DNA of 16,989 nt from a virus. The stretch lies in the UHGV virus genome UHGV-0048692, one strand, 5' to 3'. The position numbers and the translations under genes are program-made. Shown piece by piece: positions 134-12,412 of the stretch. Under the pieces are notes generated by a model, which was not told the DNA's origin, made no database searches, and saw only the letters and a program-made list of their open reading frames with translations. How positions within the stretch are numbered: position 1 is the first letter of the stretch; the number at the start of each line of letters is the position of its first letter.

Positions 134-772
134 TTGTCAGCCATTCCTTTAGCCGTTGGCGGTGCTACAGTTTTAGAGGTTCTCAAGAAGCTTAACGGGC
201 GTAAGATCGACATAGTCGAGAAAGCTAACGGTAGTGACAAAGTTAAGCTGAAAGTCGATGGTGAAGAGATTGTTTGCTCTGAAGATGTCGAAAAAATCGT
301 TAATGCCCCAGAGATTCGTAAGGCTGTTGACGCGTTTGTCAGACAGCCTCTGTTACAAGATGGTATCGACAATTTTGTGGTAAAAAAATCGCGCACCTCT
401 AAGAAAGAAATCCTCAAAATTCATAAAGATGAGGCAGAAGAGTTTAAGTCGCCAAAAGTTCTCTTTGAAACCAAAGAAGAAGTTGACGAATTTGAAACAA
501 CCGTGACATTCGTTTCGGCGCATACTGACAAAAAAAGTGGCTGGCGTGTTGAGTTTGGCGGTGAAAAGCGCAATGTCAGAATGGAAGATAATGAGTTCAT
601 CAAGCTTGTTACTGGACCAGACGCCCCCAAAATTTTTGGCGAATTGTTTGCTGTGAAGATGAAGAAAATTGTGAAAGATTCCGGTGGCCAGGTAGACGAA
701 AAGTTATCGATCATCAAAGTGGGTCGACACTTTGCCGCCAAAGATAGAAAAATAAAACCTGATGCGGATTAA
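134..772 (+). CDS. Hypothetical charged (K/E/D-rich) soluble protein, 212 aa; cargo gene
   Basis: Long ORF in AT-rich region with a TTG start at 134. No in-frame ATG until residue 150 and no well-spaced SD. Stop overlaps the next gene's start context (TAAAAATG). Confidence 0.5.
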   Translation: MSAIPLAVGGATVLEVLKKLNGRKIDIVEKANGSDKVKLKVDGEEIVCSEDVEKIVNAPEIRKAVDAFVRQPLLQDGIDNFVVKKSRTSKKEILKIHKDEAEEFKSPKVLFETKEEVDEFETTVTFVSAHTDKKSGWRVEFGGEKRNVRMEDNEFIKLVTGPDAPKIFGELFAVKMKKIVKDSGGQVDEKLSIIKVGRHFAAKDRKIKPDAD

Positions 773-774
773 AA

Positions 775-1038
775 ATGTCTATAGATATTAGTGTGTTAGG
801 ATGGTTGGGGCTGCTTGTTGCAGCTCCAGCTATATTTATAGGTGCTAGAGTGGCTATACGTAGCCTGCTCGATCGAGTTATTGTCGAAACAAAAGTTTCT
901 ATCACTTATACTGATGCAAACAAAAATGTCTATAAAACAAATATTTATATAAACAATGATGATGAGTTAATAAAGCTCATCGATGATATAGCAGAGAAAA
1001 ATAAGCGTGAGAGGAAGGAGTCAGCCTCTCATGCCTGA
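775..1038 (+). CDS. Small membrane protein, 87 aa (N-terminal TM helix, charged C-terminal tail)
   Basis: ATG 3 nt after the upstream stop (translational coupling). Hydrophobic segment VLGWLGLLVAAPAIFIGARVAI. Confidence 0.5.
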   Translation: MSIDISVLGWLGLLVAAPAIFIGARVAIRSLLDRVIVETKVSITYTDANKNVYKTNIYINNDDELIKLIDDIAEKNKRERKESASHA

Positions 1039-1447
1039 ACAAAAGAAAACAAGCGGTAAAGCAGTCGGTGTTACAGGTGGCGGCGGTGTAGGCCTTTTCC
1101 TAATAAAGCTGGCTAGCTTCATTACAGATCCAACATGGAAAGACCTTTACATTGCTTCAATACCGATGGTGTCAATTCTTTTAAGCGAAGTTTTTACTTT
1201 TGCATGGACGATTTATGCTGTTGATCCGCAAGAAATCAAACTGAAAAGGCGGTTGAAGGCTCTGAAGAAGCAAGCCGAAGCAGTTTTAAATGCACCATCG
1301 TCCCCTGTTTCTCCAGAAATGCGAGAGAAAGCGCAGGCTCGTTACGACGTGATCTGTGGAATTGAAATGGGAATTTACCCCCTCTCAATTGTAAATACGC
1401 TAGATGGAAAAGTATCCCCCACAGCGCAAACGCCGGACGTTAAATAG
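1031..1447 (+). CDS. Small membrane protein, about 138 aa (Gly-rich segment GVTGGGGVG, one TM helix, basic coiled-coil-like tail)
   Basis: ATG at 1031 preceded by GGAAGGAG (1013-1020). The ORF track's earlier start at 1007 is GTG without an SD. Overlaps the previous gene by 8 nt. Confidence 0.5.
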   Translation: MPEQKKTSGKAVGVTGGGGVGLFLIKLASFITDPTWKDLYIASIPMVSILLSEVFTFAWTIYAVDPQEIKLKRRLKALKKQAEAVLNAPSSPVSPEMREKAQARYDVICGIEMGIYPLSIVNTLDGKVSPTAQTPDVK

Positions 1448-1510
1448 CAGTTTCTACTTTGCATGACTATGCTGCATGAAATCGCATGATCGTTTGAGGA
1501 TCGTTTTTGC

Positions 1511-1538
1511 AAAAGCCCGCCAGAACTGGCGGGCTTTT
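1511..1538. terminator. Bidirectional rho-independent terminator (AAAA-GCCCGCC-loop-GGCGGGC-TTTT)
   Basis: Perfect 7-bp GC stem flanked by an A-tract and a T-tract, about 65 nt downstream of the + strand operon. Confidence 0.6.
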
Positions 1539-1583
1539 GCGTAGAGCATGCATCTGCATGAAAACCACTACATAAAGCGGGCA

Positions 1584-1602
1584 GGCGTGGCGGGGATACG
1601 AG
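1584..1602. other. cos-like site (putative cohesive-end region of the P2-like phage)
   Basis: GGCGTGGCGGGGATACGAG followed by CGCGCGC resembles the P2/P4 cohesive end as I recall it (GGCGAGGCGGGGAAAGCAC then TGCGCGC), about 14 of 19 identical. It lies in the correct orientation relative to the portal gene. Confidence 0.4.
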
Positions 1603-1689
1603 CGCGCGCAATAGGGTTATGTACAATAAATTTTTGACGATCTTCGAGTGTTATTAGCTTGAGGCTGTCAGGGAAAATGAATACAATAA

Positions 1690-1721
1690 GAAGCGCCTAG
1701 CAGAATGTTACTAGGCGCTTC
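1690..1721 (-). terminator. Hairpin terminator for the - strand mini-ORF operon
   Basis: Perfect 11-bp inverted repeat GAAGCGCCTAG / CTAGGCGCTTC with a 10-nt loop, followed on the - strand by T-rich TTATTGTATT; 34 nt downstream of the last mini-ORF stop. Confidence 0.45.
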
Positions 1722-1754: not shown

Positions 1755-1862
1755 TTATCTTTTTGATTTCTTCTTCGTATCATCGTGATCGAATACTTGG
1801 CGGGTAGGCGGCTTGCTGGGTGGTGGCGGCGGCGGTAAATTAGATTTCTCATTTTTGCTCAT
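1755..1862 (-). CDS. Polyproline mini-protein 3 (35 aa, MSKNEKSNLPPPPPPSKPPTRQVFDHDDTKKKSKR)
   Basis: ATG overlaps the 3' end of mini-ORF 2 by 14 nt. Shares the PPPPPP-x-KPP-T/I-R motif and charged tail with the other two. Confidence 0.35.
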   Translation of the reverse strand: MSKNEKSNLPPPPPPSKPPTRQVFDHDDTKKKSKR

Positions 1863-1983
1863 CTTTATTTTTCCTATTTTTTGGATCATTGCCATAGCTT
1901 TCTCTAACTAACCGAGTGATTGGCGGTTTAGGTGGTGGTGGTGGTGGTGCTTCATTTTTTTTAGGATTTTTGTGTTCGGTCAT
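1849..1983 (-). CDS. Polyproline mini-protein 2 (44 aa, MTEHKNPKKNEAPPPPPPKPPITRLVRESYGNDPKNRKNKDEQK)
   Basis: Internal ATG at 1983 of the 62-aa track ORF, chosen because it aligns with the paralogues. Overlaps mini-ORF 1 by 23 nt. Confidence 0.35.
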   Translation of the reverse strand: MTEHKNPKKNEAPPPPPPKPPITRLVRESYGNDPKNRKNKDEQK

Positions 1984-2098
1984 TTTTATCGTCCTTTCTG
2001 TCTCTTCGTAGTTGCCTTGCTTTTGAATCATCTTCAATAACGATCCTTCTTGCGGGTGGAGTAGGCCGAGGAGGTGGTGGCGGTAACGGTTTGGTCAT
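1961..2098 (-). CDS. Polyproline mini-protein 1 (45 aa, MTKPLPPPPPRPTPPARRIVIEDDSKARQLRRDRKDDKNDRTQKS)
   Basis: ATG overlaps the stop of the 216-aa gene (TAATG). AGGAG lies 8 nt upstream of the ATG. Below the 60-aa cutoff of the ORF track. Confidence 0.4.
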   Translation of the reverse strand: MTKPLPPPPPRPTPPARRIVIEDDSKARQLRRDRKDDKNDRTQKS

Positions 2099-2748
2099 TA
2101 AGTTCTCCTGACATTTTCAATAGGTATTATCAAATAGTTAGGGGCGTTATTTTTCCGCGGTGATGCTGCATCTAAATCAGCTAAAAGAAATATGACTACT
2201 GCTGCGATAATTGGAATCCATGACCAGACAAGATACTTTGTTGACTCAAATAGTTTACTGGAACGTTCCTCATTGATATTACTGTTCCAGCTAGCACACT
2301 CTCTGATTTCTTGATGAATAAACTCCCAAAGTTTATTATCAGGGTTATAACTTTCATCGTATGTAAGTCCATTGTCATCGCAATATTTTTTATATTTCAC
2401 TTCGTAACTAATCAGATCTATGTGATAATCATGCAATGCTTTAGGTGCAGGGCAATACTTAAATTCATTTCCCCATATGACTTGTTTCAACAGAATTGAT
2501 GATACAAGAACTAAGCCAAATGAAATTGCGGTACATAAAAATACTAGGCAAGCTAGCCTTGGGTGGGATTCATAAGATGTGTTTTTGGCGAGATAAGTGA
2601 GTATAGTTGCGGTAATGACAACTAATCCGAATTCGGCTTGAGCGCGAGTATGTATCTTGTCTTTATTCTCAATTTCTGAGAAATAAAGTTTTTCGTAAAA
2701 TTCTAATGCTTTATCCTTTTTCATTTTTAGATTCAGTGTGATGTCCAT
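2098..2748 (-). CDS. Hypothetical integral membrane protein, 216 aa (two predicted TM helices flanking a Cys/Tyr/Asp-rich domain); cargo gene
   Basis: AT-rich ORF directly downstream of the Q terminator. Hydrophobic segments LACLVFLCTAISFGLVLVSSILL and LVWSWIPIIAAVVIFLLADL. No fold recognised. Confidence 0.55.
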   Translation of the reverse strand: MDITLNLKMKKDKALEFYEKLYFSEIENKDKIHTRAQAEFGLVVITATILTYLAKNTSYESHPRLACLVFLCTAISFGLVLVSSILLKQVIWGNEFKYCPAPKALHDYHIDLISYEVKYKKYCDDNGLTYDESYNPDNKLWEFIHQEIRECASWNSNINEERSSKLFESTKYLVWSWIPIIAAVVIFLLADLDAASPRKNNAPNYLIIPIENVRRT

Positions 2749-2770
2749 GTATCAAACATATCACGATAAC

Positions 2771-2798
2771 AAAAAAAGAAAAGCCGCAATTCTGCGGC
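2771..2798 (-). terminator. Rho-independent terminator downstream of portal gene Q
   Basis: On the - strand, GCCGCA-GAAT-TGCGGC followed by TTTTCTTTTTTT, immediately after the Q stop codon. Confidence 0.6.
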
Positions 2799-2808
2799 TG
2801 TTGGGAAG

Positions 2809-3843
2809 CTAATCTAGCGATAATTCGTAATTTGTGAACCCTATCGCGTTTTTATCCAGCCATTTATTAAGCTCCTCAAAGCGTCTCTGAAGCGGAATAA
2901 GTTCATTACGAACGAATACGCGGCTGGCCTTCTCCACATCCCCAAATCCCCCAACATTATTAGGCATAATCCCCATCATCTGCGGTGGCACACGATGCGC
3001 CGCCATCATGTCATCCCGGCTCACGTTCTTGATGTTCAGAAACTCATCCTTCGCCGCGACTTCTGACAGAGGAATGATCTGAAGCCCATCCTTTTTGCCG
3101 TTAGGCGAGTACATAAACAGGTTGCGGAAGTTACCCGGTCCTTTGGCGCTTTTCATCGCATTGCGGAGGTTGTTCACATCCTCCTGGTTCTGCGCGGCAT
3201 CGGTCATGTACATGATGAAGCCTGCATGACTACCGTTAATGTAATACTTCCGGCGGAACAGCGTGGCGGACTCGTTGAGCAAAGCGGATGGGATGGCAGA
3301 AAGATAGCCGGGCAGGCCGTAGATCTCCTGATTAATATCCGGTTCCATCAGATGAAAAATGCTGCCTTTCGTGAACTGATACGGCTGGGTTGTCATACCG
3401 TATTGCACAAACCAGTAGGTATCCAGGTCTAACCCGCGTCGGGTATATTTTGCCAGAGCAGGCTCAAGGGCGATAACTTCACCGAAGCGGTTCGTGCGTT
3501 TCTCCAGATAGGCGTTACCAAATACCAGATAGTCCTGCACAAAACGTGAAAAAGCCTGCTGGCTGAGCAGCGGGTGAGGGATGTAGGTACTGGTCAGTAT
3601 GTTGCATTTCACCGCAATTGGTGAACTGTGATGCACGGCAGCGCGGAAGGTGCGCGCCAGTCCGTCAAAGCTTACTGGCGGCTCATACCAGCGATCTGTC
3701 TGTACGCATTCCACATAGTCCAGCAGTTCTCGGCGGTCCAGAACAGGAACGGGATCGCCGAAGCTGAATGCTTCGGCTGTAGTTTGACTTTTAAGCTGGA
3801 TCTGTTTCGTCGCCGAAGCGCGGTTCTTCTTACTCTTTCCCAT
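2809..3843 (-). CDS. Q: Portal (capsid) protein, P2 gpQ-like, 344 aa
   Basis: Size and position identical to P2 Q. ATG at 3843 overlaps the P stop (ATGA); the track's 3846 start is TTG. Confidence 0.9.
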   Translation of the reverse strand: MGKSKKNRASATKQIQLKSQTTAEAFSFGDPVPVLDRRELLDYVECVQTDRWYEPPVSFDGLARTFRAAVHHSSPIAVKCNILTSTYIPHPLLSQQAFSRFVQDYLVFGNAYLEKRTNRFGEVIALEPALAKYTRRGLDLDTYWFVQYGMTTQPYQFTKGSIFHLMEPDINQEIYGLPGYLSAIPSALLNESATLFRRKYYINGSHAGFIMYMTDAAQNQEDVNNLRNAMKSAKGPGNFRNLFMYSPNGKKDGLQIIPLSEVAAKDEFLNIKNVSRDDMMAAHRVPPQMMGIMPNNVGGFGDVEKASRVFVRNELIPLQRRFEELNKWLDKNAIGFTNYELSLD

Positions 3844-5609
3844 CAAAAAATCTCCACAATATTGCTGGTATTGGCGGACTCGCCCTGCAGCGGTTCGTTA
3901 AACAGTGCGTGCATTGTTGCCCAGGCCAGATCGGCGTGGCTGGCTTCTTCGCTGCGGCTGGCTTCATAGGTCGGGCGGTTGCCGCTGGCGGTGGTGGCGC
4001 GACGGATTGCCATGAATGACTGCGCTATGTCGGTGTGTCCGGCGTCAAACTCCAGACGGCGGTGGCTGATAATGTCGTAGGCCTTGAGTACCAGGGCGTT
4101 TTTAACATTGGGGTTGTAGACAAACTCCCGGACGGCAGGAAAGAACGCTTTCACGTTCTCGTAAACCCCGTGGCCGACCCCAGTTGAGTCGATGCCGATA
4201 TAGGTCACGTTGTACTGTTCGGTCAGTTTTTTGATGGCGTCAGCCTGGGCGCGGAAGTCCATCCCGCGCCACTGGTGACGCTCAAGAATGCGGAACTTAC
4301 CACCCGGCACGGCTGGCGGTGCCACCACTACGCATCCGGCGCTGTCGCCGTTTTGCGTACCTTTTGCCGGGTCATAACCGATCCACACTTCGCGCCAGCC
4401 AAACGGGCGCAGCGCCAGTGCATGAAAGTCGGTCCAGACTTCCCAACTGTCCACCATGCACGCCTGCAGCTCGCTGAGCGGAAACACGGACGCGAGATCG
4501 TCCACAAACTCGCACATCAGCAGGTTCTGGTATTCGTCCGGGCTGTACTCCATGCGCAACTGGTCAAGGTCGAACAGGTTGCAGCCGCCGCGCACCGCAT
4601 CTTCCACGGTGACTATCTGGCGGTATTGCCCGTCTGCGCACAGCAGGCCGGGGGCCAGATTGCTGTGGGACAGGTCGATGTCCACCTTGTCAGCTTTGTT
4701 GCGTCCACGGTTGAACAGCGCACCGGACCAGAACGGATAAGCACTGTGGGTCAGGCTGGATGGCGTGGAAAAATAGGTTTGTCGCCATTTCTTGTGAATA
4801 GCCATCCCGGAAGCCACTTTGCGCAGCTCCTGGAATTTCGGTATCCAGAAATATTCATCCAGATACAGGTTGCCGTGATAACTCTGGGCCGTGCGGGCAT
4901 TGGTGCCGAGGAAGTAAAGCGTGGCCCCATTAGGAAGCACCATCGGATCGCCTTTTAGCTCCACCTCGACTTCTTTGGCGAAGTCGATGATGTATTGTTT
5001 AAAGACGTGGGCCTGTGCCTTACTGGCGGAAAGGAAAATCTGGTTACGTCCGGTAAGCAGGGCGTCAATCAGGGCTTCACGGGCAAAGTAAAAGGTCGCG
5101 CCGATCTGGCGTGACTTCAGCAGGTTGCGGATGCGGTTGGTTTTTCCGGCTTCCCACCAGTGGCGCTGGTAGTTGAACATGGAGGAATGGAAGATTTCTT
5201 CCAGCTTCTCAATCTGCTCATCGGTGAAAACATTCTTTTCCGGCTGACGGCGTGGGCCTTTGTTGCGGTTGGCGACGTTAGGGTTTAAGTCGGCTTCGTT
5301 GCCGCCATTGTTAAACTTGCCGATCCGCGCGTGGCGCTCCGACTGGCGCGCCAGCAGGTCAATCTCTTTGAAATCTTTCCCTTCTTTGTGCTCCTTCATA
5401 ATGAGCTGGCAGTAGCGTGCGGCGGTGGTGAGCTGCATCTGATCCAGCGGCCCATAGTCACCCCACTTGTCGCGTTTTTTCCAGCTGTGAACGGTTGCAA
5501 CTTTCTCGCCCAGCATTTCAGCAATGCGGGCTACGCGGTATCCCTGAAAGTACAGCAGCATGGCCTGCCGACGGGGATCGAGATCTGCGGGTGTCAGTGT
5601 GGTGTTCAT
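3843..5609 (-). CDS. P: Terminase large (ATPase) subunit, P2 gpP-like, 588 aa
   Basis: Size and position as P2 P. Divergent from O across a short intergenic region, as in P2. Confidence 0.9.
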   Translation of the reverse strand: MNTTLTPADLDPRRQAMLLYFQGYRVARIAEMLGEKVATVHSWKKRDKWGDYGPLDQMQLTTAARYCQLIMKEHKEGKDFKEIDLLARQSERHARIGKFNNGGNEADLNPNVANRNKGPRRQPEKNVFTDEQIEKLEEIFHSSMFNYQRHWWEAGKTNRIRNLLKSRQIGATFYFAREALIDALLTGRNQIFLSASKAQAHVFKQYIIDFAKEVEVELKGDPMVLPNGATLYFLGTNARTAQSYHGNLYLDEYFWIPKFQELRKVASGMAIHKKWRQTYFSTPSSLTHSAYPFWSGALFNRGRNKADKVDIDLSHSNLAPGLLCADGQYRQIVTVEDAVRGGCNLFDLDQLRMEYSPDEYQNLLMCEFVDDLASVFPLSELQACMVDSWEVWTDFHALALRPFGWREVWIGYDPAKGTQNGDSAGCVVVAPPAVPGGKFRILERHQWRGMDFRAQADAIKKLTEQYNVTYIGIDSTGVGHGVYENVKAFFPAVREFVYNPNVKNALVLKAYDIISHRRLEFDAGHTDIAQSFMAIRRATTASGNRPTYEASRSEEASHADLAWATMHALFNEPLQGESANTSNIVEIF

Positions 5610-11560: not shown

Positions 11561-12412
11561 TTATATAAAAGGGTTTCTATAATCACTAAAATTCCAGTTG
11601 ATATGATGATCGCTGAATTCTGCTTCTTTTAATATGACTAGGCAGTTTAATCGTTTAAATTGTGAGTAAAAATCCTTTAGTGCAAAACTGATTGTTTTAG
11701 AGCCTCTTTTCATCGGCATGGTTTGGAATTGACCATTGTGAAATAATGCGTTCCTTAAGCTACAGTAAATATCAAGTGAGATGTCATGATGTTTATTGTT
11801 TTGTTGATTTATATTAAACCCATGCTTTTTGAGGTAACGATACATGATTGGCGTAATGTTTGATTTAAAATCATTCTCACGTTCTCGAACTAATGACTCA
11901 AGGCCAGAAAAAAGTAAGTAATATGATACATCAAGATAATTTATTGGATTAGAGAAAACCAATACATTTTTATGAGGTATTGTGGTAAATGGTCGATCTC
12001 TAGCAATGATGATCTTATTTATAGCAAGTTCAATAAAGTAGCGTCTTGAGTTTTTGGAAAAGCAATCTTCAAGAATGATTTCTCCTGAACTTGATAAGTT
12101 AATATTAGGAGTTATAAAGAGAGGGTAATCTATGGGCAAGTCAAATTTATGAGTCTTATTATTTAGTTGGTGTCTGATAAATACTGCTCTCTGTTCTATA
12201 AAACTCAAAATTTTCTCTAGATGAAATATGATATTATCTGTTTCGCTCTTGTCTATGATGTCAAGTTCAAGGAGCGCAGTAAGATATAATTTTTCCTTGT
12301 CTTGTCTATATTTTTTTAATTTAAGAAAACTGGTTTCTATTGGATACATTGTCCCGAATGAAAAGTGAGTTATCTTTGTTAGAGTAAAGCCGTAAATACC
12401 AACAGTAAACAT
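11561..12412 (-). CDS. Hypothetical protein, 283 aa, strongly AT-rich moron on the opposite strand between S and V; possible abortive-infection-type protein
   Basis: Long clean ORF whose composition is clearly foreign to the phage backbone. One R-x4-H motif (RNALFH, residues 220-225, nt 11738-11755). No P2 late gene of this size at this position. Confidence 0.6.
   Translation of the reverse strand: MFTVGIYGFTLTKITHFSFGTMYPIETSFLKLKKYRQDKEKLYLTALLELDIIDKSETDNIIFHLEKILSFIEQRAVFIRHQLNNKTHKFDLPIDYPLFITPNINLSSSGEIILEDCFSKNSRRYFIELAINKIIIARDRPFTTIPHKNVLVFSNPINYLDVSYYLLFSGLESLVRERENDFKSNITPIMYRYLKKHGFNINQQNNKHHDISLDIYCSLRNALFHNGQFQTMPMKRGSKTISFALKDFYSQFKRLNCLVILKEAEFSDHHINWNFSDYRNPFI

Follow-up and report, generated by a model that had tools for sequence, protein, structure and literature searches.

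A Membrane Protein with Fused or Split Proline-Rich Tail Modules in a Cargo Slot of a P2-Like Prophage: A Candidate Exclusion Module

Introduction

We describe here a gene block in the virus genome UHGV-0048692, of which a stretch of 16,989 nucleotides, called the window throughout, was analysed. The window is a P2-like prophage of Escherichia coli, and the block lies between its cos region and its portal gene Q (2809-3846). It consists of a membrane-protein gene followed by three short, overlapping open reading frames (mini-ORFs 1-3), each encoding a peptide with a run of 5-6 prolines. From sequence comparison we conclude that the mini-ORFs are real genes selected at the protein level, and that they are split, triplicated copies of a C-terminal tail module that many relatives of the membrane protein carry in the same chain. 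With a promoter-like element and a terminator, the four ORFs form a self-contained moron. The family and its layout are undescribed in the libraries, papers and structures that we searched. We propose that the module is an abortive-infection or exclusion unit in which a membrane effector is combined with independently translated proline-rich regulators, and we give this reading a probability of about 0.5. A transmembrane-effector module for exclusion or abortive infection would be of a known kind; what would be new, and we offer this as a well-motivated hypothesis, is the proline-rich micro-gene appendage and the lack of a signalling enzyme.

Results and Discussion

A profile of the membrane protein was searched against 1.84 billion representatives, with 957 matching proteins at E <= 1e-3, of which 271 reach E <= 1e-10. 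Many of the matches are 225-310 aa long and combine the same membrane domain with a variable linker and a proline-rich C-terminal module like that of the mini-ORF peptides, as in ...MSDKKPPPPPPQAPARPIARVFNDE and ...MTDKKPEPPKEVSPPPPPPPPPTRLIKEGVEIVKP. Such fused proteins were seen in Vibrio, Aeromonas, Photobacterium, Agarivorans and beta-proteobacterial metagenomes, each annotated as 'hypothetical'. The tail module is built from a short polar N-terminus, a proline-rich stretch, a P-x-R-hydrophobic-hydrophobic-x-acidic motif and a charged end. Of 44 fused tails, 36 have a methionine no more than 22 residues ahead of their proline run, while about 26% would be expected from the background methionine content of 1.3%. 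In all four fused genes with available DNA, a Shine-Dalgarno (SD) core precedes this in-frame ATG or GTG, as against one of 32 other in-frame ATG or GTG codons. Because the fused module keeps its own SD and start codon, a free tail peptide is probably made across the whole family. Two loci (L042 and L044) even carry an extra, separate and overlapping proline-rich mini-ORF after the fused gene. The fused relatives, the start signals inside the fused genes and the extra separate copies together lead us to place the E. coli layout at the split, triplicated end of a fused-to-split spectrum. The preliminary description of this DNA had regarded the peptides as separate partners of the membrane protein; by this comparison they are instead detached copies of its own C-terminal tail.

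The AlphaFold2 (AF2) model of a natural fused homologue shows a disordered tail (pLDDT 37-55). When docking of the tail on the fused homologue was modelled with AF2, it stayed disordered, which says nothing for or against binding. None of the isolated phages in GenBank carries the membrane-protein gene, and in PLSDB only two replicons do, from Vibrio/Photobacterium. A search of the literature on polyproline or proline-rich transmembrane (TM) anti-phage or abortive-infection proteins, and of the protein accessions, did not return the layout, in line with the earlier statement that no described phage system has it.

For the mini-ORFs we collected about 30 related loci from genomes, metagenomes and IMG/VR, at 25-100% identity. 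In every locus with downstream sequence (~30), one to three proline-rich mini-ORFs follow the membrane gene; in a Campylobacterota relative of 25% identity, a single mini-ORF overlaps the stop codon as ATGA. The window holds three runs of at least five prolines in all six frames, all of them inside the block, compared with 0.04 in shuffled sequences. The mini-ORFs follow the frame order 0,1,2 in E. coli and 0,2,0 in Pantoea, and their junctions vary between loci from a 23-nt overlap to a 5-nt gap, which argues that they are independent of each other. A purine-rich SD always stands ahead of the ATG nearest each proline run, in all loci; for mini-ORF 1 it is kept as AGGAG, AAGGAG or CGGAG throughout, and for mini-ORF 2 the ATG at 1983 is the conserved start, with AAAGGA upstream.

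Pairwise Nei-Gojobori estimates, made for each peptide separately, gave ratios of nonsynonymous to synonymous change (dN/dS) mostly of 0.1-0.35 and overall of 0.04-0.6, with synonymous sites near saturation (pS 0.5-0.9). These values bear out the protein-level selection that had been suspected for the peptides. Each of them has a signature of its own, placed after its prolines. Mini-ORF 1, with orthologues in at least eight loci and a dN/dS of 0.12-0.35, carries RR[IV]V[IM]EDDSK, mini-ORF 2 (dN/dS 0.16-0.6) carries [TS]R[LM]V[RQK]ES[YF], and mini-ORF 3, the best conserved of the three with orthologues in at least ten loci and a dN/dS of 0.04-0.35, carries R.AFDHDD[TV]KK. All three peptides are net cationic (K+R 9-13 versus D+E 4-7), and none has a signal peptide, a lipobox, a cysteine or a hydrophobic N-terminus. 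With a profile of mini-ORF 1, no more than five small proteins were retrieved, all of the same kind and without any new domain partner. At the RNA level, Rfam gave no family match for the block, and the mRNA is no more structured than shuffled sequences (z = -0.61).

The presence of the mini-ORFs in every locus, the variety of frames and junctions, the SD sequences, the dN/dS values and the separate motifs argue that the three are old, sub-functionalised paralogues and not the debris of a frameshifted gene. We therefore regard it as extremely improbable that the mini-ORFs are no genes at all, whether as remains of a frameshifted tail, as a product of programmed frameshifting or as the by-product of a G-rich repeat on the opposite strand. 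Such an origin would agree with the three different frames in the window and with RefSeq, which calls only the middle mini-ORF and from another start (WP_061090207, 60 aa, 1849-2031, minus strand), leaving mini-ORFs 1 and 3 unannotated. However, the upstream ATG of WP_061090207 is not conserved, being TTG or absent in L026, while the units are intact in every locus across 50-100% divergence with dN/dS well below 1, indels are whole codons, and DNA similarity among the three units is low. A frameshifted single gene or pseudogene was also considered as a candidate in its own right and was rejected because of the frame order, the variety of junctions, dN/dS and the start signals.

The proline run itself varies. 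Consecutive prolines need elongation factor P (EF-P) for their translation, and the preliminary description had suggested, speculatively, that translation of the peptides would depend on it and had looked to the homologous loci for the same polyproline pattern. Mini-ORFs do accompany every homologue with downstream sequence, and they are proline-rich, but the run spans 5 to 12 prolines across loci, changing by whole codons and also between strains, and a strict run is not conserved: L036 has (PT)n and (PPQ)n in its place and in L017 it is broken, while the downstream motif is kept. EF-P dependence as the essential property is thus not conserved either, which weakens the EF-P idea, although most copies of the run would still be hard to translate.

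The coordinates of the block are collected in Table 1. All four ORFs lie on the minus strand at the positions given earlier, with the same three junctions, and the terminator closing the module was found where it had been reported. The AGGAG before mini-ORF 1 is present too, but its distance from the ATG is 6 nt and not 8 nt. A GC content of 0.36-0.43, compared with 0.50-0.61 in the phage core, agrees with the earlier description of the block as AT-rich. From 2809 onward the P2 late genes follow, with portal Q, terminase P, scaffold, capsid, lysis and tail genes, and the prophage has a holin, an endolysin and LysB/LysC of its own. At 2809 the portal ORF ends, just beyond the hairpin that terminates its operon. 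Just past this hairpin, about 30 nt ahead of the conserved start codon of the membrane gene, stands a putative extended -10 element, which as TGnTATGTT is conserved in 10 loci of differing context (P2-like, P4-like and Pantoea). A generic promoter scan, which demands a -35 element, did not call it. With this conserved element and a terminator of its own, the block has the form of a classic moron. The segment 1500-2850 is identical to that of strain 22AR0118.

Table 1. Features of the block and its flanks, in window coordinates.
Feature	Position	Strand	Remarks
Terminator hairpin of the upstream portal/terminase operon	2782..2799	-	7-bp GC-rich stem, then TTTCTTTTTT; upstream boundary of the module
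Putative extended -10 promoter element, TGaTATGTT	2755..2763	-	from conservation alone
Membrane-protein gene	2098..2748	-	216-aa ORF; 208 aa from the conserved start at 2724
SD sequence of mini-ORF 1, AGGAG	2105..2109	-	inside the end of the membrane gene; 6 nt ahead of the ATG
Mini-ORF 1	1961..2098	-	45 aa, MTKPLPPPPPRPTPPARRIVIEDDSK...; start overlaps the stop of the membrane gene (TAATG, 1 nt shared)
Mini-ORF 2	1849..1983	-	44 aa, MTEHKNPKKNEAPPPPPPKPPITRLVRESYGNDP...; 23-nt overlap with mini-ORF 1
Mini-ORF 3	1755..1862	-	35 aa, MSKNEKSNLPPPPPPSKPPTRQVFDHDDTKKKSKR; 14-nt overlap with mini-ORF 2
Intrinsic terminator closing the module	1690..1721	-	13-bp stem with 7 GC pairs, T-rich tail; also in the RNA fold
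cos region of the P2-like phage	1500..1641	.	conserved flank on the opposite side of the insert

The membrane protein had been read as a 216-aa protein with two TM segments. The ORF of this length is there, but the conserved start, used by most homologues and by RefSeq, is the ATG at 2724. In the numbering of the longer form there are three hydrophobic segments instead of two (residues 40-54, 65-87 and 172-190). The AF2 model of the window protein (pLDDT 82.5) has four long helices, three of them with hydrophobic spans, and the membrane domain of the fused homologue P0218 is modelled with a pLDDT above 90. Close relatives form 17 clusters at 53-100% identity from Escherichia, Enterobacter, Cedecea and Pantoea. 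The protein belongs with phrog_36961, a PHROGs family of unknown function; no sequence relative was found in Pfam, NCBIfam or the PDB, and for the four proteins of the block, Pfam, NCBIfam and PADLOC gave nothing above threshold. Right after the third TM helix, the motif DLDxSSPRK (2163-2189; residues 187-195 of the 216-aa ORF) is nearly invariant in the protein and its homologues. Small residues occupy -3 and -1 and a proline follows at +1, and in this the motif resembles an uncleavable signal-peptidase-I site (AXA rule). A beta-proteobacterial subfamily has GDLDxTKxSKP in its place.

The place of the block in the prophage is a known one. The gpA-gpQ cos-proximal interval of P2-like phages and a cos-adjacent locus of P4-like elements have been described as anti-phage hotspots, with about one third of the cloned systems active (Rousset et al. 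2022, PMC9122126), and a 2026 follow-up found that of eight unknown loci picked at random from P4 hotspots, six were defensive (PMC13586616). Our block lies next to cos and before Q, its content varies among related prophages, and the position of the cos region agrees with the hotspot of PMC9122126. This cos region is the sole part of 1500-2850 that is common to 1274 E. coli and 45 phage records. The preliminary description had noted that P2 itself has almost nothing between cos and Q; this may hold, but the slot is a described cargo hotspot. It had also pointed to the same junction in other P2-like prophages. There, the block is present in only 6 of 5426 complete E. coli genomes, which differ among themselves in their left-of-cos cargo, while other P2-like prophages of E. 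coli (L046-L049) hold different cargo in the cos-to-Q slot, namely a DUF262 protein, an AAA ATPase with an S8 peptidase, or two hypotheticals. The annotation of L046, L047, L048 and L049 also places a short pseudogene, interrupted by an internal stop, on top of the cos region.

Outside this slot, the module was found in several further settings. In one locus it has a Psu gene close by, a sign of a P4-like satellite, in L038 it occupies the S-V tail-gene slot of another P2-like phage, and in Aeromonas it lies in a lambdoid prophage. In Vibrio cholerae it stands beside a filamentous prophage and a zeta toxin, and in Vibrio rarus (L040:5513-8569) a fused homologue lies between two ParE/PhdYeFM pairs and a nucleotidyltransferase gene, in a layout reminiscent of a chromosomal integron cassette array. 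In a Campylobacterota metagenome-assembled genome (L010), the module is directly upstream of a ThsB-TIR and a caspase, the pair of type IV Thoeris. The same-strand series L010:1388-4274, with gaps of about 10 nt, comprises an unknown 256-aa protein, the membrane homologue, a mini-ORF at 2787..2888, the TIR protein (ThsB type, E 1.3e-9) and the caspase (E 2.4e-16). A five-gene operon with the similar order PycTM-cyclase-TIR-caspase has been published (PMC13069673).

Comparison with PADLOC models gave weak matches to TM effectors of defence systems. The PycTM model PDLC02364 matches the family member P0042 at E 2.8e-6, with residues 37-185 aligned to positions 35-157 of the 160 in the model, and it matches 4 of the 25 family members scanned. 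PDLC02363, also a PycTM model, matches a member at E 1.2e-4, and the models for the CBASS 2TM effector and RTasSLATT (RT-associated SLATT) match members at about 1e-3. The PADLOC effector matches are colinear over the whole domain and all go to one functional class. SLATT_5 of NCBIfam matches one member at E 0.047, below the cutoff. Published work describes SLATT/TM effectors as cell-killing membrane assemblies (bioRxiv 10.64898/2025.12.03.692087). A role in exclusion or abortive infection fits both the hotspot location and these weak, end-to-end matches.

In the mechanism that we propose, the product of the first gene would be an inner-membrane protein whose three TM helices run on into a helical bundle, and it would act as the membrane-breaching effector of an abortive-infection or exclusion module expressed in the lysogen. 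The disordered proline-rich peptides, made by coupled re-initiation, would regulate this effector. Present both tethered and free, they would most likely be inhibitors, or else sensors, so that their loss or displacement during infection frees the effector. One may go further and imagine the peptides, in free and tethered copies, as a new class of translation-coupled safety catch that keeps a SLATT-like pore shut. Because synthesis of each peptide begins with a long proline run, its supply would be tied to the elongation capacity of the cell (EF-P, tRNA-Pro, ribosome integrity), and a phage that takes over translation would drain the peptides and let the pore fire. We consider this extension speculative and unlikely to hold, but if true it would describe an immune sensor of translation state made of one protein family and spread across Proteobacteria in phages, satellites and integron-like islands.

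Several observations weigh against the abortive-infection or exclusion reading. The effector matches are weak, concern a minority of members and lie in hydrophobic sequence that is prone to spurious matches, and the membrane protein of the window has no PADLOC match itself; for these reasons we treat its remote kinship with PycTM/2TM/SLATT-type effectors as unproven. The SLATT families of Pfam do not match the family. The window and the P2-like, P4-like, Vibrio and Aeromonas loci contain neither a cyclase nor a CD-NTase or TIR gene; a TIR gene stands downstream only in L010, where it is paired with a caspase as in type IV Thoeris. Three TM segments place the N- and C-termini on opposite sides of the membrane, and a positive-inside count over 251 homologues favours an N-in, C-out topology. 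The fused tail is then predicted to be periplasmic and the free peptides, which have no signal, to be cytoplasmic, which would be awkward for a simple inhibitor model; such a charge-based prediction is of modest strength. One relative (L044) lies among housekeeping genes on the chromosome, between thiS and a peptidase gene. Finally, the table of PMC9122126 lists the 60-aa form of mini-ORF 2 (WP_061090207) only as 'hypothetical'.

Among known systems, the PycTM, CBASS 2TM and SLATT effectors (for example ThsH of type VII Thoeris) come closest. They too are small inner-membrane proteins whose TM helices continue into a cytoplasmic helical region, and they are found in defence hotspots, as the family is, which in one case stands beside a TIR-caspase pair. 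Unlike them, the family has no recognisable ligand-binding domain and no cyclase, CD-NTase or TIR partner in its P2, P4 and Vibrio loci, and it scores under the curated Pfam and NCBIfam thresholds. The proline-rich tail module, fused or split, is a feature of the family, and none of these effectors is known to have one.

A precedent for the internal starts may be the SieB gene of P22 and lambda, which, as Ranade and Poteete are said to have reported in 1993, yields Esc, an internal in-frame C-terminal product that modulates SieB. The SD and ATG or GTG inside the fused genes of the family parallel this internal start, whereas Esc is not proline-rich, does not come from tandem ORFs and is under antisense RNA control; no sequence relation is to be expected. 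SieB has an abortive phenotype (PMC10883804). Toxin-antitoxin systems with a membrane toxin share the compact operon on a mobile element, with a larger membrane protein and small coupled partners. In the family, however, many members have the 'antidote' covalently fused, the number of paralogous partners is three, and the predicted topology may put the membrane between effector and partners.

The preliminary description had also seen a likeness to antimicrobial peptides. Being short, cationic and proline-rich, the peptides do resemble oncocin, pyrrhocoricin, Bac7 and apidaecin, and PRPTPP of mini-ORF 1 is found in pyrrhocoricin as well. Proline-rich antimicrobial peptides are secreted by animals, carry PRP motifs in repeated form and bind to the ribosome tunnel. 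In the family, by contrast, it is an R-hydrophobic-acidic element (EDD or DHDD) that is conserved, PRP-type repeats are either missing or not conserved, PRPTPP is not kept in the orthologues of mini-ORF 1, and the module usually forms the tail of a membrane protein. The likeness is thus one of composition only. Spanins (Rz/Rz1, and LysB/LysC of P2) likewise consist of a membrane protein and a small proline-rich protein from overlapping phage genes. We rejected a spanin assignment because the peptides have no signal peptide, lipobox or cysteine, LysB/LysC are encoded elsewhere in the prophage, and the module also occurs outside phages. The features of an arrest leader of the SecM/MifM type were not found either, as a terminator follows the last mini-ORF, the polyproline is not strict and the mRNA is unstructured.

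Three other explanations accept the mini-ORFs as genes. The module might have an accessory membrane function outside phage defence, for example in addiction or stabilisation of the element, in stress or envelope remodelling or in the timing of lysis, and the tail would then be a motif for protein interaction. This is possible, though in our estimate somewhat unlikely. The annotation of all family members as 'hypothetical' would agree with it, as would the relative next to thiS, the other relatives beside toxin-antitoxin cassettes and the fact that not all hotspot cargo is defensive, given the one third of cloned systems that were active (PMC9122126). Against it stand the recurrence of the module in several phage and satellite cargo slots enriched for defence, the adjoining Thoeris-type pair in L010 and the weak similarity to defence effectors; as for lysis, the prophage is already equipped. 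The charge distribution that troubles a simple inhibitor model would suit a superinfection exclusion at the envelope, in which an N-in/C-out protein blocks the entry of phage DNA. The proline-rich segment would then be a rigid periplasmic spacer, TonB-like, which presents a hydrophobic-acidic strand motif to the ejection machinery of the incoming phage or to a host envelope protein. A disordered, linker-like tail and strand-like motifs that recur after the third TM helix and in each module are consistent with this, as is the position in prophage moron slots, and there is precedent for inner-membrane proteins of prophages that block injection, such as SieA of P22 (PMC10883804). However, the free and internally initiated peptides lack a signal peptide, a lipobox and any hydrophobic segment and are therefore expected to remain cytoplasmic, the topology call is modest, and the TonB-box likeness is tentative, so that we consider envelope exclusion unlikely.

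The proline runs themselves could also be the active part, as a sensor of the translation state: stalling at polyproline, relieved by EF-P, would set the yield of peptide or tail, and elongation stress would switch the module. Indeed, 5-12 consecutive prolines begin 6-14 codons past the start in most copies, and the units are translationally coupled. But the length of the run drifts freely, and where L036 and L017 have replaced or interrupted it, the downstream motif is retained; the strongly conserved, distinct C-terminal signature of each peptide speaks for a function at the peptide level. Moreover, there is no downstream gene to regulate, only a terminator, and the mRNA has no significant structure. 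A sensor of this kind thus appears improbable to us, and an abortive-infection or exclusion unit remains the reading that we prefer.

The window carries further cargo. Its first ~125 positions are the end of an IS1 element, which truncates the first gene of a three-gene cargo set on the left of cos. What is left of this gene, ORF 134..772, covers 212 aa at the C-terminus of a protein whose intact form in strain 13E0767 has 297 aa. The ORF matches the PADLOC candidate PDC-S42 (5.6e-28), the NCBIfam family 'LAPAL motif-containing putative phage structural protein' (1.2e-35) and phrog_3243. After it come two small ORFs that look membrane-like (775..1038 and 1031..1447). Between the tail genes S and V, an ORF of 283 aa (11561-12412, minus strand) gave no Pfam or PADLOC match; strain 22AR0118 has only 68 nt in its place, and this S-V position looks like a second moron slot.

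Conclusion

In summary, we found that a membrane-protein gene in the cos-to-Q interval of a P2-like prophage is followed by three proline-rich mini-genes, which correspond to a tail module that is fused to the membrane domain in many relatives. We regard the architecture and the evolutionary pattern, as read from the sequences, as solid, and the function as a well-motivated hypothesis. If our reading is true, a module of ~1.1 kb would provide defence or exclusion under the control of proline-rich peptides of 35-45 aa. Annotation pipelines miss such peptides; here RefSeq calls one of three, with the wrong start. It would further name a family of about a thousand sequence clusters and tie the SLATT/PycTM class to a module that has no signalling enzyme. 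The same protein tail, both fused and as separately initiated or split mini-genes, would be a natural case of use for studying how small proteins evolve, how internal initiation works and how polyproline is translated. In P2-like prophages, the cos-to-Q slot is thereby flagged as a hiding place of real micro-genes.

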